From an uncultured Bdellovibrionales bacterium (GTDB lineage Bacteria; Patescibacteriota; Minisyncoccia; Moranbacterales; UBA2206): a stretch of DNA of 54,028 nt. The position numbers and the translations under genes were made by a program. The notes under the pieces were generated by a model that saw nothing but the letters and a program-made list of their open reading frames with translations, ran no database searches and was not told the origin of the DNA. Where the stretch lies: positions 47,557-101,584 of the forward strand of contig CAYTIK010000001.1 of assembly GCA_964438025.1 (NCBI GenBank), given 5' to 3'. This document shows positions 2,780 to 52,371 of this stretch, piece after piece (within the stretch, counting starts at the first letter, position 1; every line of letters begins with the position of its first letter).

Positions 2780-3071
2780 CCCCGCACTAATTTTTATTTA
2801 AAGATTTTTTTATTCTTTTTTTCAATTGAGCAAGCGCTTGGCCATGCTGTTTTATTTGTTTTTCTTTTTCCCATGCATCTTCTTCTGCAAAATAAGCTTC
2901 GTAATAAACAAGCTTCCATTTGTGATTTTTTGTATATAAAGAATGGCTATCATTATGTTGAAAAAATCTTTTTTTAAATCACTCGTACAGCCATAATATA
3001 ATTCGTTTTTTTCATTTTTTAGCACATAGAAGTAATGCATACGAATTAAAATAATAAAAGTTAGTGCGGGG
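2780..3071 (-). mobile_element. TIR-bounded GIY-YIG mini-element, copy 1 (ORF frameshifted)
   Basis: Arms CCCCGCACTAATTTTT (2780-2795) and AAAAGTTAGTGCGGGG (3056-3071) are 15/16 complementary. Same architecture and size (292 bp) as 37624-37914. Confidence 0.7.
2787..3040 (-). pseudogene. GIY-YIG (YhbQ/UPF0213-like) nuclease gene, interrupted by a 1-nt frameshift in an A7 run
   Basis: MHYFYVLKNEKNELYYGCTSDLKK continues in another frame as RFFQHNDSHSLYTKNHKWKLVYYEAYFAEEDAWEKEKQIKQHGQALAQLKKRIKKSLNKN*. The shift is at A7 (plus-strand T7, 2969-2975). About 65% identical by eye to the intact paralog at 37631-37885. Confidence 0.7.
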
Positions 3072-3112
3072 CAAGCTGTCCACAAGCGCCTTGGATATCA
3101 TTGCCAAAGCTT
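3061..3112 (-). pseudogene. Relic of an rlmN-like 3' end fused to the element arm
   Basis: Encodes KSFGNDIQGACGQLAPH*. The resident rlmN ends KSLGTDIQGACGQLTSGK* (5199-5255). The last codons and stop lie inside the TIR. Confidence 0.55.
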
Positions 3113-3133
3113 TTTTTATTTTTGAATATCAAA

Positions 3134-3173
3134 AGGACTTGAGAAAATATTTCTCTCAAGTCCTCATTTTTTT
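3134..3173. terminator. Bidirectional hairpin terminator
   Basis: AGGACTTGAGA (3134-3144) / TCTCAAGTCCT (3154-3164), with a T-run on the plus side and an A-run on the other. Confidence 0.6.
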
Positions 3174-3182
3174 ATAACCTTG

Positions 3183-3749
3183 TCATTTCTTATCAATTAT
3201 GTCTATTACGTTTTTTGGTAAGGGAATCTTTTTCATATAGCTCCATATAAAATTACCCTTCGCCATTATCGCATGCATAATCAAGCGCAGTAGAAACAAA
3301 ATTAACGCTTCAATGCCTAAGAGTATATAATAATCCGCCCAAACAATACCCGCGACAGCGTTTATTATTATCTTAGGTAAGGGCCCTGAAATAATCATTA
3401 TATAGATATATGCTACGCTTTTATTGTATTTGATTTCTTCTTCCAATCCCAACGATATTGGCCGCATTATGAATGGCATGCTTTTTGATTTGTTTTTTGT
3501 GGTCACAAGTATGTCAGTAATTGCTATCGCATAACCAGCGACAGAATTAATGATGATACATAACACAAATTTGTAAGGCTGATTAGTAATCGCCAATAAC
3601 AGCCAGTCCGCCACGCCTGTCCACCATTTTGATTCAACGCTAAGCTGAAGAATGTACATAACAGCAACAAATTCAATTGAAAGCAATGATGCTAACAAAA
3701 TTATAAGCACACCCGCACTAAAACCTCTACGATCATCCATTTTTTTCAT
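3183..3749 (-). CDS. Multi-pass membrane protein, unknown function
   Basis: Start moved to the internal MKKMDD: AGGAGG lies 6 nt upstream, and the longer ORF would run through an upstream hairpin. Several hydrophobic helices. Confidence 0.6.
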   Translation of the reverse strand: MKKMDDRRGFSAGVLIILLASLLSIEFVAVMYILQLSVESKWWTGVADWLLLAITNQPYKFVLCIIINSVAGYAIAITDILVTTKNKSKSMPFIMRPISLGLEEEIKYNKSVAYIYIMIISGPLPKIIINAVAGIVWADYYILLGIEALILFLLRLIMHAIMAKGNFIWSYMKKIPLPKNVIDIIDKK

Positions 3750-3829
3750 GACTTTCCTCCTTTTTTTAGAGAAGGCTTGAGAAAAAAAATCTCTCAAGTC
3801 TCAAGCAACTTAATTTACCCAGAAAACTT

Positions 3830-4249
3830 TCAAGGAGCTTTCATGTCTTGTTTCTTTTGCTCCTCCTTGATATCTGCCAGAATTTTCTTGCGTTTTTCGG
3901 TTTCCGAAATCCACTTTTTAATTTTTTCTCCTTGGTTATAAAAATCATTGAATTCTAGCCTGGACAAAACAACTACTCCATCGGGAAATTCAACCACAAA
4001 GTATCTGATATCTTTATACCTTTCGCTAGGTTCACTAGGTTCGATGTCTCCATGTTTTGAATGTCTTATTATTTCAAGAATGCGGACCCTTTCAATCTTG
4101 CCATTTCTCGCAATCTCAAAATGCGCTCCTACCATTTTTTCTACCCGATCAATTTCTCGGTCGGTTAATATATGCTCACCAACAAGCATAGCTAGCACAA
4201 ACACAAAAAAAACCACCCATATCTTATATTTCCTGATCCAATTTTTCAT
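3830..4249 (-). CDS. Single-pass membrane-anchored protein, unknown function
   Basis: Start moved to MKNWIRKYKIW (GGAGAAGAGG upstream). N-terminal TM helix. Confidence 0.55.
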   Translation of the reverse strand: MKNWIRKYKIWVVFFVFVLAMLVGEHILTDREIDRVEKMVGAHFEIARNGKIERVRILEIIRHSKHGDIEPSEPSERYKDIRYFVVEFPDGVVVLSRLEFNDFYNQGEKIKKWISETEKRKKILADIKEEQKKQDMKAP

Positions 4250-4461
4250 AACCTCTTCTCCTTTCATTGGTTGTTGCGTTTTTGGGTTAATTGTCAAAAA
4301 ACTGCTTAACGGCTTATTGTAAACTAAATGAATTAATTTAGGTCATTTTTCAGCATTTTTAATATATCGCTGTTTATTTTTCTCATTTTTGGCTCAACAT
4401 TGACATTATTTATCCTTTATGCTATCTTTTTAAAAACGACCTTTTTGGCGACAAAAAAACT

Positions 4462-5196
4462 ATGCTTAAAAAAGAATTGGGAAAATTGAATCTTACGGAT
4501 AGAGAAGCCGGCGTATATATGGCTCTTTTGGAGCTGGGCGAAACCTCTATTGAAAGAATTTCCATGAAATCAAAGATAAAGAGAACCACAGTATATGATG
4601 TAATTGAAACGTTAAAAGACAAGGGCCTTATTGGAACCATTAAAAAGAAAAAACGAACTTTATATTATGCTGAGGATCCCCGAATTCTCGGGAATCAACT
4701 GGAAGAAAAGAAAACCGTCTTGAATAACATCCTCCCCCAGCTATTGTCTATCGCTAATTTCATAGATAAAAAACCTGATATCAGATTTTTTGAAGGCGCT
4801 GAAGGAATAAAAAATGTTTACCAAGATACGCTGAATTATCCCGGACAAGAAATTCTTATGTGGGGATCGACCGATGTATTTAAATATTTCGATGAAGATT
4901 TTATGTGGAATTATTATCTGCAAAAAAGAATTGAAAAGAAAATTTGGATGCGGGCCATCGGACAAGATTTGGAAGTTGTACGCAAGATTAAATCCGCTGA
5001 TAGTAAAAGCCTGCGCCAAACGCGCCTGCACAATTTCAAAGAATTCCCCTTTGATGTGGAAATTAATCTTTATGGAAAAAGTAAAATAGGCGTTATGGCA
5101 TTTCAAGAACAGATCGGGCTGATCATCGAAAGCGAAAAAATTTATAATACGCTAAAAAGCATCTTCGAATTGAATTGGAAAATGCTGGAAAAATAA
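4462..5196 (+). CDS. TrmB-family transcriptional regulator
   Basis: N-terminal winged-helix LTDREAGVYMALLELGETSIERISMKSKIKRTTVYDVIETLKDKGLI. Confidence 0.8.
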   Translation: MLKKELGKLNLTDREAGVYMALLELGETSIERISMKSKIKRTTVYDVIETLKDKGLIGTIKKKKRTLYYAEDPRILGNQLEEKKTVLNNILPQLLSIANFIDKKPDIRFFEGAEGIKNVYQDTLNYPGQEILMWGSTDVFKYFDEDFMWNYYLQKRIEKKIWMRAIGQDLEVVRKIKSADSKSLRQTRLHNFKEFPFDVEINLYGKSKIGVMAFQEQIGLIIESEKIYNTLKSIFELNWKMLEK

Positions 5197-5198
5197 AG

Positions 5199-6284
5199 CT
5201 ACTTGCCAGATGTTAGTTGTCCGCAAGCGCCTTGGATGTCAGTGCCGAGACTTTTTCTGATTGTCGTTTTGATACCATTGCGCAAAAGCAGATTTTGAAA
5301 TTTTTTGATCCTTTGAAAATCCGACGGTTGGAAACTACCCTTGGTCGTATTGGCGGGAATCAAGTTTATGTGCAAGAGATAACTATCTTTGATGGATTTT
5401 AAATAATCAATAAGGCTATCCGCGTCATATGGAGAATCATTGAGACCCTTGAACATCGCGTATTCGATAAAAACTTTTCTCCGGCTTTCTTTAAAATAGC
5501 CTTGCAGGGCGTAGCGCAAGTCCCGTAGATCGTATTTCCGGCTGACCGGCATATACTTATTCCTTTTTTGCTCGTCGGCAAAGTGGAGAGAGATGGCCAG
5601 ATTAACTTGCGGAAATTCTTTGACCAGTTTTTCTATTCCATCGGGAATGCCGGCGGTCGAAACCGAAATACTGCGCGAACCAAAACCGAAAAGTTCCGGA
5701 TTGATAAGATTTTCGATACTTTTCCTCACTTCTCCCCAATTTAAAAACGGTTCGCCCATGCCCATGAAGACGATGTTGTTTAGTTTGTAGTTTGTAGTTG
5801 GTAGTTTGTGGTTTGTGCTTTGTGTTTTGTTTGTGTTTTGGATTTTGTGTTTTTGTGTTTTATTCAGATAATTTTTCCAAAACAAAATTTGGTCCGTGAT
5901 TTCTTCGGCCGATAAGTTTCTCTGAAACCCGCTTTGGCCGGTGGCGCAGAAAGCGCATTTGAGCGAACAGCCAACTTGGCAAGAAAGACACACGGTCCAA
6001 TTATCAACTTTCGAAAAAATAATTACGGATTCAATATATTTTCCGTCGTTAAGTTTTAAAAGCGCCTTGATGGAATCTTTATCTTTGGAGACTAAAACTT
6101 TTTCTGTTTCGAAAGACAATATTTTAACTTGTTTTTCGAGTTTTTCTCTTAATTCCTTGGAAAAAGTCGTAATTTCGGCAAACGAAATAGCGCTGTCTTT
6201 ATAGACTGCTTTTTTGACTTGCTCCAGCCGATACTTTGGCTGATTAGTCTCTTTTAAAATTTTCGCTATTTTTTCAATATTCAT
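5199..6284 (-). CDS. rlmN: 23S rRNA/tRNA adenine-C2 methyltransferase RlmN (radical SAM)
   Basis: CxxxCxxC cluster GCSLKCAFCATG, VFMGMGEP, and C-terminal DIQGACGQL. Confidence 0.9.
   Translation of the reverse strand: MNIEKIAKILKETNQPKYRLEQVKKAVYKDSAISFAEITTFSKELREKLEKQVKILSFETEKVLVSKDKDSIKALLKLNDGKYIESVIIFSKVDNWTVCLSCQVGCSLKCAFCATGQSGFQRNLSAEEITDQILFWKNYLNKTQKHKIQNTNKTQSTNHKLPTTNYKLNNIVFMGMGEPFLNWGEVRKSIENLINPELFGFGSRSISVSTAGIPDGIEKLVKEFPQVNLAISLHFADEQKRNKYMPVSRKYDLRDLRYALQGYFKESRRKVFIEYAMFKGLNDSPYDADSLIDYLKSIKDSYLLHINLIPANTTKGSFQPSDFQRIKKFQNLLLRNGIKTTIRKSLGTDIQGACGQLTSGK
5778..5861 (-). repeat. Degenerate 7-nt-period repeat (TAGTTTG / TGGTTTG / TGTTTTG ...) in frame inside rlmN
   Basis: Plus strand reads tagtttg tagtttg tagttgg tagtttg tggtttg tgctttg tgttttg.... 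Encodes the low-complexity NKTQKHKIQNTNKTQSTNHKLPTTNYKLNN just before IVFMGMGEP. Confidence 0.7.
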
Positions 6285-6304
6285 ATTCTAATTTTCTTCA
6301 TTCC

Positions 6305-6342
6305 ATACTACATTTTATTGCATATGCAATGATTTATAGTAT
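6305..6342. promoter_or_regulatory. 38-nt composite palindrome immediately 3' of the PaaX-like gene
   Basis: ATACTACATTTTATTGCATATGCAATGATTTATAGTAT. Central perfect 14-bp palindrome ATTGCATATGCAAT plus outer 8-nt arms. Confidence 0.8.
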
Positions 6343-6912
6343 TTAGTTTAATCTAAAAAAGGATCTTACATTTTGATCATTTTCTATTTCACAAGCAGTT
6401 ATAATTTTAATTTCTTCTTTGCTTAAATTAAAGAAATTTCTTAAAACCCCTGCTTCCTTTTGAAAATCATATGGATAGACCCAAACACTTTTTTGCAATT
6501 GAAACAATCCCAATTCTTTGATTTTTCCTCTTAAATATTCTCTCTTTATATTATCTCTGTTTTTTATATCAAATATTAAAATTCTCCATTTTTTATCCCA
6601 TCTTTCTGGTTTTTGTATTTTCAAATCATCAATTTGATATTTCCCCGCTGCTTTTTTTCCTTCTTTGGTGAGAGAAATATAAATTTGCTTACCTCTATAT
6701 TCAAATTTTATCATATCCCTTTTTTTCAAACGATAAAAAGTATCGTAAAATTCTTTCTTCTTTTTCGCGCTGTTTACTTTATAAGAAATACTTTTTATTA
6801 TTTTCGGAAGCACACGCATGAAAAAATGCGGATCATTAGCTGAGATAATTATAGCACCCCCAATCAAAAGACTTTTAAAAATTGTTTTAGTTATTTCTTT
6901 TTTATTCAACAT
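6343..6912 (-). CDS. PaaX-like / Cas2-fold domain protein with an N-terminal hydrophobic segment and a winged-helix-like region
   Basis: WDKKWRILIFDIKNRDNIKREYLRGKIKELGLFQLQKSVWVYPYD matches the PaaX central Cas2-like pattern. Paralog at 35502-36080. Confidence 0.6.
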   Translation of the reverse strand: MLNKKEITKTIFKSLLIGGAIIISANDPHFFMRVLPKIIKSISYKVNSAKKKKEFYDTFYRLKKRDMIKFEYRGKQIYISLTKEGKKAAGKYQIDDLKIQKPERWDKKWRILIFDIKNRDNIKREYLRGKIKELGLFQLQKSVWVYPYDFQKEAGVLRNFFNLSKEEIKIITACEIENDQNVRSFFRLN

Positions 6913-6938
6913 AATCCAATATATTATTACTACTAATT

Positions 6939-6976
6939 ATACTACATTTTATTGCATATGCAATGATTTGTAGTAT
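6939..6976. promoter_or_regulatory. Second copy of the 38-nt composite palindrome, 5' of the PaaX-like gene
   Basis: ATACTACATTTTATTGCATATGCAATGATTTGTAGTAT, 37/38 identical to 6305-6342. Confidence 0.8.
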
Positions 6977-7006
6977 TGATAAAAAATGCCTTCCCTAAAT
7001 TAAAAA

Positions 7007-9352: not shown

Positions 9353-9437
9353 ATTTTTAAGAATTACGAATTAGGAATTATGAATTAAGAATAAATTTTT
9401 AAAAATATTTGAATTTTTACTGCGGGGCACATATATT

Positions 9438-20035: not shown

Positions 20036-20472
20036 TTAATTAGATAAATTATTTTTTAACTCTTGTAATTGCCTCAATACACTACTATCCAAAATTTCAT
20101 CTCCGACTCGAATAATGATTCCGCCCTTGACTTTTTCATCAATAATATTATGCAAAATCACTTCCTTAGCCTGACCCGCCTGCTTTGCTACGCGAAGCGT
20201 TGCAGACAGGTATTTTTCTTTGATATATTTACTTACCTTATTACGTAATTCAGTATGTAATTCTTCATGGCTAGTAATCTCCGCTTCCACAATGCCTTTC
20301 TCTTGATTCCAGATTTCACCAAATTTTTATAAATTTTTGGAACTAACTTTAGTTGCCTATTTTTTTGCAAAATTTTCGTTAAATTTAAAACAGCCTCGCC
20401 AATTTCTTTTTGACTCTTATCTACAGTCGCTGCGTATAAACTTTTGGCGTATTGATTGACGGTAATCTTCAT
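20036..20472 (-). CDS. atpH: F1 ATP synthase delta subunit, split into two frames at an A5T3 run
   Basis: ORFs 20233-20472 and 20036-20290 together make a delta subunit (...[13 protein letters not shown]...[16 protein letters not shown]). The frames meet at plus-strand aaattttt, 20321-20328. Confidence 0.7.
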
Positions 20473-22787: not shown

Positions 22788-22852
22788 CCCCGCACTAACT
22801 TTTTACCTTTTTTATTTTTTGCGCTTTGGCGCAGTAAAAAGTTAGTGCGGGG
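22788..22852. mobile_element. ORF-less 65-bp derivative of the GIY-YIG element (TIRs only)
   Basis: CCCCGCACTAACTTTTT (22788-22804) and AAAAAGTTAGTGCGGGG (22836-22852) are 17/17 complementary. The 31-nt loop has its own TGCGC-tttg-GCGCA hairpin. Confidence 0.75.
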
Positions 22853-35440: not shown

Positions 35441-35476
35441 TACCTCATTTTCATGCGATAGCAAGAATTTGAGGTA
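35441..35476. promoter_or_regulatory. 36-nt composite palindrome 3' of the second PaaX-like gene
   Basis: TACCTCA-ttttca-TGCGATAGCA-agaatt-TGAGGTA. Confidence 0.75.
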
Positions 35477-36133: not shown

Positions 36134-36169
36134 TACCTCATTTTCATGCTATAGCAAGAAAATAAGGTA
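36134..36169. promoter_or_regulatory. 36-nt composite palindrome 5' of the second PaaX-like gene
   Basis: TACCTCATTTTCATGCTATAGCAAGAAAATAAGGTA, 32/36 identical to 35441-35476. The core TGCTATAGCA is a perfect palindrome. Confidence 0.75.
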
Positions 36170-37623: not shown

Positions 37624-37914
37624 CCCCGCGCTAACTTTCGTTCAAAGATTTTTTGATTCTTTTTCGCAGTTGCGCCCAGGCTTGTCCGAATTGTTTAATT
37701 TGTTTTTCCCTCTCTTCAGCATCCTCTTTTGAAAGATAAGCTTCGCAATAAATAAGTTTCCATTTATGATTTTTCGTAGAAAAAGAATTGCCATTGTTAT
37801 GCTCAAAAAATCTTTTTTTTAGATTATTAGTATAGCCATAATACAATTTCTGGATTTCATTTTTAATCACGTAAAAATAATACATATAGAATAATAACGA
37901 AAGTTAGTGCGGGA
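37624..37914 (-). mobile_element. TIR-bounded GIY-YIG mini-element, intact copy
   Basis: Arms CCCCGCGCTAACTTTCGTT (37624-37642) and AACGAAAGTTAGTGCGGGA (37896-37914) are 17/19 complementary. 291 bp in total. Confidence 0.75.
37631..37885 (-). CDS. GIY-YIG nuclease family protein (YhbQ/UPF0213-like, 84 aa)
   Basis: YFYVIKN...LYYGYTNNLKKRFFEHN...CEAYLSKEDAEEREKQIK (GIY / YIG / R / E pattern). Confidence 0.85.
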   Translation of the reverse strand: MYYFYVIKNEIQKLYYGYTNNLKKRFFEHNNGNSFSTKNHKWKLIYCEAYLSKEDAEEREKQIKQFGQAWAQLRKRIKKSLNES

Positions 37915-39052
37915 CTCTTAATTTTTTCATCAAATCCAGATAAAATTTCAGATTATGGAGAGAAGCCAAGCGCATCGCCAACGGTTCTTTGGCCGCAAAT
38001 AGATGGTGCAAATAAGCCCGGCTGTAATTCCGGCACAATTCACAGGTGCAATTTCTATCTACCGGCTTAAAGTCTTTCTTAAATTTTTTATTATTGATAT
38101 TTAGCGTTTCGTAAAAATTTCCAGAAAGTGCTTTCTTTTTCCAAAGAAAAAGCCGTCCATGACGTCCCTCGCGCGTGGGAATCACACAATCAAACATATC
38201 CCAGCCGTAGGAAACCGCACGGACAATGTCTTCCGGCGTGCCAATGCCCAGCGCAAACTTAAGTTTGTCATCCGGAATAAAGCTGGCAGTTTTTTGCAAA
38301 ACTTCGGCCAAAAAATTACCTTCGCCATCCACATGGCGAGCGCCAAAGCCGTAGCCATCCCAGCCTACGGCTGGTCCGTCCGCTCCCTGGCGGACGGAAG
38401 AACCAATTTTAATCAGTTCTTCCACACATTTTTTCCTTAAGTCTAAATATTCGCCTCCTTGAATAACACAAAAAATTAACGGCCTATCCGCTTTTTTTAT
38501 TTTTCTAACTTTCAACTGCTTTTTATACTCAATCATACAACGCTCCGCCCAAATAATCGTCCGCTCCACCGCTTGCCTGATTTTTTCTTTGCTAAAGTCG
38601 TTAGGCGGTGGATCATCCAGGCACACCAGCATATCCACTCCCAAATCAAATTGAATTTGAATTGATTTTTCCGGAGTTAACTCATGATGGGAACCATCCA
38701 GCGGCGAACGGAAAACAACTTTCTGGTCCGTAATTTTTCCCACCTGCGGATTTTTGTGAATCAAAGAGAAAACCTGGTAGCCGCCGCTATCGGAAAGCAA
38801 CGGTTTCTGCCATTGCATAAATCGATGTACGCCTCCCGCTTTTTTGATAATTTCTATTCCCGGTTGGAGATATAAATGATACGTGTTAACCACCATCGGA
38901 CCAATATTAATATCTTCCAAGTCTTTTTGGCTCAAGGATTTGACAAATCCTCGCGTCGCATCCGGCATAAAAAACGGAGTTTTAATTACTCCGCTTTTAG
39001 TTTCCAATCGGCCTTGGCGATTTTTTTTTCCTGCTAGTTTAAACATGCGCAA
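37904..39052 (-). CDS. tgt: Queuine tRNA-ribosyltransferase
   Basis: TPFFMPDATRG, SDSGGYQVFSL, zinc site CTCELC...H. Confidence 0.93.
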   Translation of the reverse strand: MRMFKLAGKKNRQGRLETKSGVIKTPFFMPDATRGFVKSLSQKDLEDINIGPMVVNTYHLYLQPGIEIIKKAGGVHRFMQWQKPLLSDSGGYQVFSLIHKNPQVGKITDQKVVFRSPLDGSHHELTPEKSIQIQFDLGVDMLVCLDDPPPNDFSKEKIRQAVERTIIWAERCMIEYKKQLKVRKIKKADRPLIFCVIQGGEYLDLRKKCVEELIKIGSSVRQGADGPAVGWDGYGFGARHVDGEGNFLAEVLQKTASFIPDDKLKFALGIGTPEDIVRAVSYGWDMFDCVIPTREGRHGRLFLWKKKALSGNFYETLNINNKKFKKDFKPVDRNCTCELCRNYSRAYLHHLFAAKEPLAMRLASLHNLKFYLDLMKKLRVPH

Positions 39053-42464: not shown

Positions 42465-45400
42465 TTAGTCTTTTTTTATCTGCAATTTTATTTTTTCTCC
42501 GTCGATGACGGATTCCTTTTCCAGATCTGCGTTTTCAATATTTTCTGATTTTAGCTCGTTGGCCAAAATCTCCTTAGCAATAATATCGCCGAATTTTTCA
42601 AAGACCTGCGACATTCCAGAATAGCTGACAATTATGCGATTGTCAACTTCATAACCCGCTTCCTTGCGCATTTCCTGGATGAAGCGGATAATTTCGCGGG
42701 CTTGGCCTTCGAGTTTTAGTTCTGGAGTAATTTTGGTATCCAGTTCGATTTCTTTAAATTTTTTATCTTGAATAACTTTTTTAACATTCACTTCTTCTTG
42801 GATGATTTTCAAAAATTCCTTGCTTAATTCCTGACTCATAATTCTTAATTCCGCTAAGGGTTGGCGCACTTTTATACCATTTTTGGCTCTAAGCTGCAGC
42901 GCTACCGTAATAATATTCCTGGTTTCCGCCATTTTGTTATTTAATTTTTCATCAATCAGTTTTTCATCCGCTTTGGGAAAATCGGTCAGATGCACGGACC
43001 CGCCTGCATCGCTATGCGAAGCATTGCGGGCAGGTTCTTCACCGGTTAGATTTTTATAGATTTCTTCCGCAATAAATGGCGTAAACGGTGCCATCAGCTT
43101 GGCCAGTTCTGTTAATACCGTCCAAAGTGTCTGATAAGCATTTTCTTTATCGGCGTCGTCTTCCGATTTCCAAAATCGCTTACGGCTGCGGCGGATATAC
43201 CAATTAGAAAGATTATCAACAAATAACTCGAATGGTTTGGTTGATTTTACCAAATCATAACCTTGCATGCTTTCATCCACTTTTTTTATCAATTTATGCA
43301 GTTCGGAAATAATCCATTTATCTAATAAGTTTTTAGTTGGTGCTTGGTGGTTAATAGTCTTTAACGGTTCCCACTTATCCACACCGGCATACAGAACAAA
43401 GAAGGAATAACTATTCCACAAAGTCGCCAAGACTTTTCTTTGAATATCCTGAATCGGTTTTTCGGAAAAATTAATATTCTGCGCATCCAGCAGCGGCGAG
43501 GATAAAAAATAAAAACGTAAGGCATCGGCGCTATATTTTTCCAAGACAACATCTGGCAAGGTGTAATTTCCCAGTGATTTAGACATTTTTTTGCCATCTG
43601 ATCCGGCAATAGTCCCTGTCGTCACAACATTTTTGAAACTTTCTTTGCCGAATATCCCTACGGAAACAACATGCAGCACGTAGAACCAAGCTCTGGTTTG
43701 CGCGATATATTCGGAAATAAAATCAGTTGGAAAACTTTTTTCAAATTTTTCCTTATTCTCAAAAGGATAATGAAATTGGGCGAAAGGCATTGAGCCGGAC
43801 TCAATCCAGGAATCAAAAACTTGCGGAATTCTTTTCATAACTCCTCCGCATTTACAAGCAAATGAAATATTATCTACCCCCGGCCGATGATAATCTTCCA
43901 GTTCTACTCCGGAAACTTCCTTCAGCTCCGCGTATGATCCAAAAACTTTAATCTCTTGGCAATTTTCCCTATCGCATTTCCAAACCGGAATGGCTGTCCC
44001 AAAATAGCGATCACGAGAAATATTCCAATCCGGCGCGCTTTCAATTCCGTTCTGAAAACGACCGTGTTTGAGAAAATCCGGAAACCAACTAATATTTTCA
44101 TTCTGAGCGATTAAATCTGGCCGCATTTTAGCAATGTTTACATACCAAGCCGGTTGTGCCTTATAAATCAATTTTGTATGACACCGGTGGCAATGCGGGT
44201 AACTATGCGTTATTTGTTCTCGTTTAAAAAGTATCTTGTATTCTTTTAGCCAAGCTACAATTTTATCATTGGCATCCCAAACTTTTTGTCCCTGCCATTT
44301 GCCTTCCGTAAGTTTTCCCTCATCATCTACATTCATAATAATTGGCAAATCGTCAGTTTTTCTGGCATTAAAGTCATCTTCTCCGAAAGCTGGCGCAATA
44401 TGCACAATCCCCGTTCCGTCTTCAGTTGTTACGAAATTAGCTACGATAACTTTGTAAGCATTTTCTTCAAGCTTATCATGTAATTCAATATTTTTGACAA
44501 CATCTTTAGATCTTTTTTTAAAATTATTATCTTCTTTAATAGCAAATACTGATTCCTTATTTTCCTTTAAATCTATATTTTTAAGTGACGGAATAAACAT
44601 CCCTGCCTTAATATTATTTTGATAATAATCAAATATTGGCTCATATTTTTTACCCATTAAATCTTTACCTTTAAATTCTGCTTCAACTTTATATTCTTTA
44701 CCGGCAAAAACTTCTTCAACCCTATCTTTGGCTAAAATATAATAATCTTCTCCGCAAATAATTTTAACGTAATTAATTTCTCCGCCTACCGCCAAAGCCA
44801 CGTTAGCTAAAAGCGTCCAAGGCGTCGTCGTCCAAACGAGAAAATAAGCATTCTCTTCGCCTCTAATTTTCATTTTCACATATACCGACGGATCGCTGTC
44901 CATTTCATAACTATTATCCATCGCAATTTCAAAATTTGATAATGGCGTTGAACAGCGTGGGCAATAAAGTGAAACGCGCACATCTTCATAAATCAAACCT
45001 TTTTTAAACAATTCCGAAAATGCCCACCAAACCGATTCCATATAACCTTTATCCATGGTCTTGTAGGCATTTTTAAATTCCACCCAGCGGCCGATGCGAT
45101 CAATAATATCTTCCCATTCGCTGGCAATTTGGGAAGTCTCAGAGAGGCAAGCTTCATTGAACTTGGCAATTCCGATTTTTTCCTCAATTTCTTTTTTGCT
45201 CTTGATCCCCAATTTTTTTTCCACCATATTTTCCGCCGGCAGACCATGGCAATCCCATCCCCAGCGCCGTTCTATTCGGTAACCTTTCATAGCCCAATAT
45301 CTCGGCACAGTATCTTTAACAATGGAAGAAAGCAAGGTTCCATAATGCGGCACCCCTGTAATAAAGGGTGGGCCATCATAAAAGCTGTAATATTTATCTT

Positions 45401-51884: not shown

Positions 51885-51922
51885 CTAAACATCCGCTGTT
51901 TGTTACGCTTGTAGTGTGAGGG

Positions 51923-51958
51923 CCCGCCCGCATCGCTACGCGAAGCGTGGCGGGCGGG
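51923..51958. repeat. 36-nt GC-rich hairpin element abutting the tmRNA 5' end
   Basis: CCCGCCCGCATCGCTACGCGAAGCGTGGCGGGCGGG, 31/36 identical to the ileS copy. Confidence 0.85.
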
Positions 51959-52371
51959 GGTTGTTAAGTTTCGACAATTTGTACTTTCCAAACAAGCAAG
52001 CCGAGGATGATAATAGCTCGCTAAACCTTTATCAAAAGTTATAAGTGCCAACTTCATAACTAAAGCAAAATCGGTATTAGCTAACGCTTTTACCGCAAAT
52101 TTTGCCCTAGCCTTAGCCTAACCGCTTCCAAGCGGAGTTAAGGTTCATCGAATTGCCGATTTCTCATAGGCAAACCTCGGTGTCATATATGAGGATAGTC
52201 AAATAAGGCGTTCTAAACTTTTTTGGCGAAGCTAAATTTAGAAATAGATTGAGAAGGTTTTGTCCGCTTTCCACTTCCTAATCGAAGCTCGCAAGGCTTT
52301 AAAGCTGAATACGCTTGTAGAATGTTTTGAAAGAATAAATTTGGACGCGAGTGCAATTCTCGCCAACTCCA
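51957..52371 (+). ncRNA. ssrA: tmRNA (SsrA)
   Basis: 5' GGGGUUG...UUCGAC. 3' T-arm GCGAG-UGCAAUU-CUCGC and acceptor CAACUCC-A, giving a 7-bp stem with G3.U70. Tag ORF ends ...ANAFTANFALALA-UAA (52065-52121). Lies directly after smpB. Confidence 0.88.

Follow-up and report, generated by a model that had tools for sequence, protein, structure and literature searches.

A frameshifted GIY-YIG gene between 19-bp inverted repeats at an rlmN remnant, a likely decaying member of an insertion-sequence-like family in Patescibacteria

Among the closest described counterparts of the element reported here are the Ssn nucleases, single-domain GIY-YIG enzymes of ~94 amino acids (aa) that cut single-stranded DNA (ssDNA) beside the hairpin repeats NTS and SRM (Chenal et al., 2025; PMC11893778). 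These repeats flank ssn genes, the authors remarked on the insertion sequence (IS)-like look of the NTS-ssnA-NTS arrangement, and Ssn proteins were recognized by homology to Neisseria meningitidis SsnA at E < 1e-10 or by assignment to CDD cd10448 (GIY-YIG_unchar_3) (Chenal et al., 2025; PMC11893778). At the gonococcal locus of our reference SsnA homologue (L154) there are seven NTS copies around the gene, and those flanking ssnA are in opposite orientation. Here we analyze a contig stretch of 54,028 nucleotides (nt; hereafter the window) from a genome placed in the Patescibacteria, in which a frameshifted GIY-YIG gene (copy 1) lies between inverted repeats (arms) and directly abuts a remnant of the 3' end of rlmN. 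We consider copy 1 likely to belong to a ~290-bp IS-like family of Patescibacteria and to be in decay, at an old rlmN site with the rlmN relic still in place.

Copy 1 lies on the minus strand. In gene orientation its 3' arm occupies positions 2780–2798 (plus strand CCCCGCACTAATTTTTATT) and holds the stop codon TAG (2787–2789) of the GIY-YIG open reading frame (ORF), and its 5' arm occupies 3053–3071 (plus strand AATAAAAGTTAGTGCGGGG) and gives P, H and the stop TAA (3061–3069) to the rlmN relic. The arms are complementary at 18 of 19 positions. The ORF is read from 3040 to 2787, and a deficit of 1 nt breaks its frame at an A7 run (T7 on the plus strand, 2969–2975) whose 0 frame, A_AAA_AAA, is a slippery heptamer. 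With one base added, an 84-aa ORF results (MHYFYVLKNEKNELYYGCTSDLKKRFFQHN...), and one more A in the run, or a -1 slip there, yields the canonical ...LKKRFFQHN.... The repaired protein matches Pfam PF01541 (GIY-YIG; E = 1.4e-12, 48.1 bits, cut-off 22.6) and is 69% identical to the intact copy in the window (37631–37885) at the aa level, 76% at the nt level. An earlier note on this DNA had recognized a second, frameshifted GIY-YIG copy between inverted arms, a break in A7 and its repair by one A to LKKRFFQHN. Our analysis agrees on each point, with arms of 19 positions where the note had compared 16-mers (15/16); the note also saw correctly that the two copies are similar, and its figure of about 65% identity is replaced by those given above.

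The intact copy 2 (37624–37914, minus strand) has arms at 37624–37642 and 37896–37914 around an 84-aa ORF (37631–37885), whose product scores 52.9 bits against PF01541 (cut-off 22.6), with the domain covering residues 1–69 of 84. It adjoins tgt (37904–39052), which ends ...RVPH with its stop codon in the copy 2 arm, as the earlier note had stated. A third unit, at 22788–22852 (65 nt), contains no ORF, only a 27-nt loop between two perfect arms of 19 nt; its fold as ssDNA reaches -26.9 kcal/mol (z = -8.6). The arm core CCCCGCACTAA occurs eight times in the window with at most one mismatch, compared with 0.47 expected. Two solitary near-matches to this core that have no partner arm are possibly chance occurrences or decayed solo arms; these are CCCCGCAGTAA at 9417–9427 (minus strand), ~65 nt upstream of glmS, and ACCCGCACTAA at 3711–3721 (plus strand), within a 204-aa ORF described below.

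One genome per species was scanned for the arm and for relatives of the protein. The survey returned 41 usable arm pairs, comprising 16 ORF-bearing and 25 ORF-less units, and pairing statistics were calculated on 39 elements. The arms follow the consensus (C/T)CCCGCACTAAyTTTnnnn, which provides a stop codon at either end of the unit (CTAA / TTAG). The inverted repeats are exactly 19 bp long, pairing ending at position 19. Across the 39 elements, 95.9% of arm cells are Watson-Crick paired, against 38–50% in slid controls; compensatory changes occur at 13 of the 19 arm positions, with 137 double-change cells versus 37 in shuffles. G-T pairs are almost absent from the 733 arm cells, which points to a constraint acting on DNA, not RNA. 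Among 25 GIY-YIG loci examined in genome contigs, close relatives of the protein share the same arms, and relatives at 45–55% aa identity have different yet analogous arms starting CCCnCAC (e.g., TCCCACACATAACTTACAC, CCCCCACACCAATTGAGCTT, CCCCTCACCCTTTATTCCA). Unpaired matches to the arm 15-mer in diverse phyla were dismissed, as they had no extended consensus and appeared at a rate close to chance.

Perfect 4-bp direct repeats lie directly outside the arms in 19 of the 41 units (P ~4e-35), namely 9 of 16 with an ORF and 10 of 25 without, whereas inverted 4-bp matches were seen in 0 of 41 and offset controls gave 0–1. The repeats are TTGA (7 units), TCAA (4), TGTG (3), TGAA (2), TTCA (1), CAAA (1) and CTTG (1). 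We considered whether the inner arm sequence guides the 4-bp repeat, as in IS200/IS605, and rejected this, since three loci that share CGTT (L131, L133 and L132) have TGTG, TGTG and TTGA, respectively. Terminal inverted repeats (19 bp) and a target duplication are both characters of insertion sequences, and the units contain no transposase of a known class (DDE, HUH, serine or tyrosine), their sole ORF being the GIY-YIG nuclease. Unit sizes fall into classes of 28–78, 114–189 and 284–319 nt. In the fetched loci (~240, mostly 4–8 kb) no span above ~320 nt was found between arms, apart from 648 nt separating two distinct hairpin units at L065.

The ORFs of the family are under strong purifying selection (nonsynonymous divergence, pN, 0.10–0.25; synonymous divergence, pS, 0.6–0.9), and synonymous sites are saturated while the outer 11–15 arm nt stay identical. 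Clustered at 50% identity, the protein family counts 3,408 representatives with E <= 1e-3, of which 247 reach E <= 1e-10; among the 150 best relatives, lengths of 80–110 aa prevail. No relatives were detected in viral contigs. Rfam searches at gathering thresholds over 19 loci retrieved tRNA, rRNA and group I introns only, with no match for the arms or the cargos. Some genomes with these elements are labeled Bdellovibrionales or Gammaproteobacteria. We treat these labels as doubtful and not as a sign of a wide host range, given that the tgt genes of those metagenome-assembled genomes (MAGs) are Patescibacteria-like (60–75% identity). MAGs with apparently wrong labels, the same elements and Patescibacteria-like tgt include L129, L134, L163, L164 and other 'TPA_asm' entries. 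The window itself has a G+C content of 38%, and its closest tgt (74%) is in a Candidatus Moranbacteria MAG.

The units resemble Ssn systems in several respects. Both have a single-domain GIY-YIG protein (Ssn ~85–95 aa; window units 84 aa), encoded between inverted cognate repeats that, for Ssn too, are scattered gene-less in the genome (PMC11893778). The NTS (ATTCCCGCG) has a TCCCGC core, and the arms carry (C/T)CCCGCAC. In contrast, each NTS or SRM is itself a hairpin, whereas the window arms are not self-complementary: the pair of arms makes up the stem and the gene lies inside the hairpin. The SRM pattern (HGTCWY...RNCYNB) matches only at 934–961 in the window, beside neither GIY-YIG gene. 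Moreover, a 4-bp target duplication with fixed 19-bp ends does not appear in the available portion of the Ssn paper (PMC11893778). By BLASTP the window protein is 31% identical to the gonococcal SsnA homologue over 59 aa (E = 3e-9 in a single pairwise comparison), and a profile built from 22 family members scores SsnA at 51.6 bits and the UPF0213 protein BH0048 at 51.1 bits. SsnA thus fares no better than BH0048; the family is a possible member of Ssn, to which the working analogy is strong. The 934–961 sequence (minus strand, TGTCATTCCCGCGAATGCGGGAATCCAG) is an almost perfect Neisseria-type NTS/Ssn-related motif, with no second example in the window. An ELP3-like ORF (1–1230) reads it in frame as ...FLDSRIRGNDK..., and no cognate SsnA-like gene was found in the window.

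Three other systems invite comparison. RAYT/REPIN systems, made up of REP-associated tyrosine transposases and REP doublets, similarly have one small nuclease gene between inverted repeats, dispersed non-autonomous hairpin doublets, and old, largely vertical copies at conserved positions whose halves are kept complementary by compensatory change. They differ in that their enzyme is an HUH/Y1 transposase and not a GIY-YIG protein, in that IS200/IS605-type ssDNA transposition makes no target duplications, and in that here a genome region can contain several gene copies (two in 54 kb). The UPF0213/YhbQ-type proteins are the best relatives by sequence among solved structures (PDB 1ywl and 1zg2; E = 1e-3 and 3e-3) and are similar in size and motifs, and we know of no inverted- or direct-repeat context for them. 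Free-standing homing endonucleases (I-TevI, T4 Seg) share the GIY-YIG domain and a tie to one particular site of a conserved gene, as seen here for the end of rlmN in several lineages. They combine the nuclease domain with a DNA-binding domain and invade homologous empty alleles, with neither terminal repeats nor a target duplication, but the window protein has only 84 aa without a linker or DNA-binding domain, and the window units are bounded by inverted and direct repeats at many unrelated insertion sites. A further likeness is presence in rRNA genes of the Candidate Phyla Radiation (CPR), where GIY-YIG ORFs were reported in insertions that are neither introns nor homing-like, with no mention of inverted repeats (Tsurumaki et al., 2024; PMC11270868). 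In the literature that we searched, we found no description of small GIY-YIG genes bounded by inverted repeats and target duplications; the element family is apparently undescribed so far and widespread in Patescibacteria.

The rlmN relic was examined against its homologues in the same region. It occupies 3072–3114 on the minus strand (KSFGNDIQGACGQL plus the first base of the codon for A) and represents a 'type A' allele that runs directly into the arm; with the arm codons it reads KSFGNDIQGACGQLAPH followed by a stop (3114 to 3061), the final PH and the stop lying inside the arm. When its 42-nt core is compared with the corresponding positions at the 3' end of the resident rlmN, 33 of 42 nt agree ungapped and 35 of 42 in local alignment. 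The runner-up in the window (~108,000 positions, both strands) reaches 24 of 42, so that the similarity, which the earlier note had proposed to check against chance, is above it. The rlmN of locus L124 is closer still (39/42 nt), and KSFGNDIQGACGQL can be aligned with 120 RlmN C-termini and contains the clade motif ...RKSLGxDIQGACGQL.... The note had assigned 3061–3112 to the C-terminus of rlmN, with its last codons and stop derived from the arm as in tgt; the fragment is genuine (14–17 codons) and so is the arm's contribution, and its outer end is to be moved to 3114.

The resident rlmN (5199–6284, minus strand; TIGR00048, 302.7 bits) has a 'type B' 3' end (...GACGQLTSGK, then stop), and its closest RlmN, at 87% identity, is from a 'Patescibacteria group bacterium.' It is separated from the old 3' end by a 2.1-kb block (3115–5198) that is not in any relative examined. 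The block encodes a TrmB-like helix-turn-helix (HTH) protein (4462–5196, plus strand), an uncharacterized 155-aa protein (3830–4297, minus strand) and an uncharacterized 204-aa membrane-like protein (3183–3797, minus strand), and is closed by a terminator-like hairpin with a 15-bp stem (3133–3165, minus strand) that stands between these upstream genes and the relic with copy 1. No integrase or other recombinase was found in the block, and searches of its genes with PHROGs and PADLOC gave weak HTH matches only. A hairpin like that at 3133–3165 lies at 3773–3805 (..CTTGAGAGA...TCTCTCAAG..), so that both ORFs on the minus strand of the block are followed by one; the pair may have arisen by duplication of a terminator module.

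Alleles of rlmN occupied by the element at GQL, which the earlier note had suggested looking for, do exist. They were located via RlmN C-termini ending in H, of which there were several, and two were followed up. At L122 (P0079), an intact rlmN ends ...GACGQLVPH with its last codons and stop in the arm TCCCGCACTAACTTTTGC, downstream of which come an intact 84-aa GIY-YIG ORF and the second arm. At L158 (P0033), an intact rlmN ends ...GACGQLAAH and is followed by a GIY-YIG ORF between compensated arms (CCGCGCAC / GTGCGCGG). Copy 1, L122 and L158 have the same flanks immediately outside the arms (CAGCTTG on the left, TGAAGC on the right), positions 3114–2774 of the window are colinear with 4964–5304 of L122 across the rlmN 3' end and the element (76% over 342 nt), and the protein of copy 1 falls in the same subclade as those of L122 and L158 (70–71% identity). 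Searches with rlmN-arm junction sequences gave no match for TGYGGNCARYTNNCCCCGCACTAA in the genome contigs and, for TGYGGNCARYTNNYCCCGCACTAA in metagenome contigs, a lone chance match in L157, an unrelated contig of high GC.

L123–L128 and L158 share with the window the gene order glmS-rlmN-[variable]-UPF0047-NUDIX-ELP3-like. The relic and copy 1 fill the variable slot of this interval; they have the same orientation as the resident rlmN and lie 2.1 kb downstream of it. In L123, L125 and L126, whose RlmN proteins are 79–85% identical, the element is absent and dxs follows rlmN; the rlmN ends of these loci (gtttcgcactag, gcttcgcgctag and gcttcgcgctaa) look like decayed solo arms. L124 and the resident rlmN have a further end type in common, and L127 and L128 have a third. 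Relatives differ at the rlmN site, which is occupied in some, vestigial in others and empty in others again. From these comparisons, the relic most likely represents the original end of rlmN, which stayed where it was, and relic and frameshift alike would reflect ordinary decay at an old site of insertion. The locus is in this respect a clean example of one that records a past rearrangement.

The course of events could have been as follows. In an ancestor, rlmN would have run into the element, with the arm giving rlmN its final codons and stop, as in L122 and L158. The 2.1-kb block of three genes and a terminator, with a new rlmN 3' end, would then have come between the rlmN body and the original end, leaving a 14-codon relic joined to the element. 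Cut off from rlmN read-through, the GIY-YIG ORF of copy 1 would have lost one base of the A run, or be decaying there. The scan found no promoter-like site 5' of this ORF, and the terminator-like hairpin at 3165–3133 stands there instead, which suggests that copy 1 lost a read-through transcription still present for copy 2 and L122. The low pN relative to pS of the repaired copy 1 against copy 2 (0.15 and 0.67) fits a recent date for the frameshift. As a separate matter, the arms were considered as a sigma-70 promoter (TTGACC as -35) and this was rejected, the spacing to -10-like boxes being inconsistent and no promoter lying upstream of copy 1.

As for mobility, on the Ssn analogy the nuclease would recognize the arms, probably as an ssDNA snap-back stem, and make breaks that move both ORF-bearing and ORF-less units, with host functions completing the joining; most present copies would be old and vertically inherited. 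By analogy, the family can be placed as a variant on the Ssn/REP-like theme that shows clear transposon hallmarks and for which we infer the mechanism. A bolder proposal, which we advance tentatively and rate somewhat below an even chance, is that the units represent a new type of prokaryotic transposable element whose sole protein, an 84-aa GIY-YIG nuclease, recognizes the 19-bp end stem, mobilizes itself and the hairpins with a 4-bp duplication, and inhabits gene ends and rRNA genes of Patescibacteria. If true, RAYT/REPIN and IS200/IS605 would have a counterpart built on GIY-YIG, and there would be an explanation for Ssn-type genes flanked by their own recognition repeats. Should the nuclease be the mobilizing enzyme, a catalytic class would be added to bacterial transposition, and the family would offer natural pairs of protein and recognition site for ssDNA tools.

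Several observations weigh against this picture of copy 1 and of the family. None of the three window units has a clean 4-bp duplication (copy 1 TTCA/CAAG, the 65-nt unit TCAA/CAAG, copy 2 AAAA/CTCT). Near-identical copies were found nowhere (pS 0.6–0.9), and there is no sign of recent movement. To our knowledge, no GIY-YIG enzyme carries out strand transfer. A 4-bp duplication reflects staggered cuts in a duplex target and is no natural product of an ssDNA-hairpin mechanism. tRNA and ~145-nt cargos, described below, sit between arms at apparently orthologous sites without direct repeats, which a simple transposon model does not predict. The A7 run of copy 1 is possibly an assembly error. Finally, our reading does not by itself account for the 42-nt rlmN stretch in duplicate, next to a block that lacks a recombinase; replacement of the allele with an illegitimate downstream join, or integration of a block with its own gene end, are possibilities.

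In the main rival on mechanism, the arms delimit a miniature inverted-repeat element moved in trans by a conventional transposase encoded elsewhere, the GIY-YIG gene being a passenger comparable to the tRNA and ~145-nt cargos, or a domesticated host gene. Units with and without the ORF agree in their ends and in their 4-bp duplication, a length typical of DDE transposition; the cargo is diverse (tRNA-Leu, tRNA-Ala and others); and GIY-YIG enzymes are hydrolytic nucleases not known as transposases. Against this, no transposase lies between such arms in the ~240 fetched loci. Arms and GIY-YIG protein diverge in parallel within the family, the ORF runs into the right arm with its last codons and stop, and strong purifying selection acts on conserved sites of the ORF. 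In addition, the related Ssn nucleases recognize repeats beside their own genes (PMC11893778). We therefore judge mobilization in trans unlikely, though it is a serious competitor to a nuclease that moves its own units.

A second alternative concerns the state of copy 1, which might be no pseudogene at all, either because a true A8 was misassembled or because -1 ribosomal frameshifting or transcriptional slippage occurs on A_AAA_AAA. The pN of 0.15 against a pS of 0.67 implies that nearly all of its divergence accrued under constraint, and the break is of a single base in a homopolymer with a slippery register. Moreover, the rlmN-associated GIY-YIG ORF of L158 (~2300, GAGAAAAAAACTT) is likewise one A short in an A7 run and in the A_AAA_AAA register, in another run and at a codon other than that of copy 1. 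Yet little transcript is expected downstream of the terminator-like hairpin in the lack of a promoter-like site, intact relatives encode the site in frame, and A-run deletions are the commonest indel of AT-rich genomes, so that two independent cases are unsurprising; a mutational bias at A runs most simply accounts for the deficits of both L158 and copy 1. An independent assembly across 2969–2975 was not found, the neighboring UPF0047 gene being present on just two short contigs that end before 2969. On balance, a functional copy 1 appears improbable, and we retain its reading as a decaying gene.

The earlier note had seen a hitch-hiker in the relic, with homing-like conversion that dragged flanking sequence along as one suggested route. 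Spelled out, the element would have come from an rlmN::element donor with ~45 nt of rlmN flank, by imprecise transposition or by homing-type co-conversion. The junction of relic and arm is indeed that of the occupied rlmN alleles, and the relic is nearer to other alleles of the clade (39/42 for L124) than to the resident gene (33–35/42). But it lies in the syntenic interval in rlmN orientation, 2.1 kb off and with flanks shared with L122 and L158, so that a jump would have had to return to its own locus; an in-place remnant needs no such coincidence, because a jump with captured flank must re-enter the rlmN slot in the right orientation. Homing requires two-sided homology and would be expected to put the element at the resident rlmN end, not behind three other genes; the 84-aa protein without a DNA-binding domain and the 4-bp direct repeats at many unrelated sites also speak against it, and no other unit among the 41 examined has a foreign gene fragment at its edge. 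We thus find an origin from such a donor very unlikely, and the suggestion is not borne out.

Least probable of all, and to our minds scarcely tenable, is a role of the arms at the RNA level in the host, as processing stems, terminators or attenuators of small genes, and not as ends of a mobile unit. Arms do surround tRNA genes, lie inside rRNA genes in the manner of RNase III-processed intervening sequences and occur at gene ends. A role as RNA stem is rejected, however, on their strict Watson-Crick pairing with almost no G-U among the 733 cells. The direct repeats of 4 bp, present in 19 of 41 units, are a strong contrary argument, and the same ends at many unrelated sites in distant lineages speak against it too.

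With regard to insertion sites, the earlier note's impression that the element tends to gene 3' ends is supported across the family: 9 of 14 ORF-bearing units lie 0–37 nt past, or overlap, the stop codon of a co-directional gene, with offsets from that stop ranging between -37 and +9 nt. In several units the TGA of the duplicated TTGA or TGAA is itself the stop of such a gene. The units last long at these positions, and the arm becomes the last codons and stop of the host gene. Old shared sites include rlmN, in at least three lineages, and TGTG joined to TGTGGATAAC, in four MAGs. Occupation of the tgt site was seen in 2 of 77 lineages, the window and L161, its closest relative, with 76 tgt loci compared. 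No precise empty site was recovered.

Ribosomal RNA genes are also used. L065 has units at 1033–1096, 1318–1504, 1617–1680 and 4716–5034, three of them in one 23S rRNA gene and the fourth just downstream, with a group I intron alongside, and in a Wolfebacteria MAG (L149, ~2440–2790) a GIY-YIG-bearing unit lies within the 16S rRNA gene. In Patescibacteria, few kinds of unexplained gene are as common as small stand-alone GIY-YIG genes, which also occur within rRNA genes, and their association with flanking repeats here gains a concrete transposon-like anatomy of compensated 19-bp ends, 4-bp duplication and ORF-less derivatives.

Some arm pairs enclose other cargo. Whole tRNA genes lie between arms at L007 (7143–7271), L008 (6366–6493), L121 (3086–3226) and L067 (1532–1668), the genes being Leu-tag, Leu-cag, Leu-caa and, by a tRNA-Ile, Ala-tgc; the three tRNA-Leu cases have common flanks, GCGCG before and TAAAT after the unit, without a 4-bp direct repeat. 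A cargo of ~145 nt occurs within arms in Saccharibacteria and Parcubacteria MAGs (L017 4876–5020, L025 1860–2005, L042 4535–4678, L104 4281–4424 and L043 5621–5767). It has a conserved internal hairpin (..GCGCG..GGCGAATAGCC..CGAAGCGC..), a conserved left flank CTACAAAYA and no Rfam match, and may be a small RNA gene.

The window contains further repeats. A second dispersed hairpin family of the GACCCGCCTGC...GCAGGCGGGT type, unrelated to the arms, is found at 20173–20211, 42997–43035 and 51921–51959, and some RlmN homologues (P0066) carry a related sequence inserted in frame (...MPAGRQE...). Internally palindromic direct repeats of ~36–41 nt surround two PaaX-like genes (6302–6342 / 6939–6979 and 35441–35476 / 36134–36169); the first gene is at 6343–6912, and the other is deduced from a PaaX_M gene called in L001. 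The 6302–6979 repeat pair and its gene are not present between glmS and rlmN in relatives and may be a second kind of cassette, and the C-terminus encoded by 6343–6912 shows weak Cas2-like matches (E = 1.8e-5). Lastly, in-frame low-complexity insertions of short tandem G/T-rich or AAGTTCAAAG units occur in rlmN (5780–5870) and in the ELP3-like ORF (88–118), where they are translated as KTQKHKIQNTNKTQSTNHKLPTTNYKLNN in RlmN and as KFKVQSSKFK in the ELP3-like protein.

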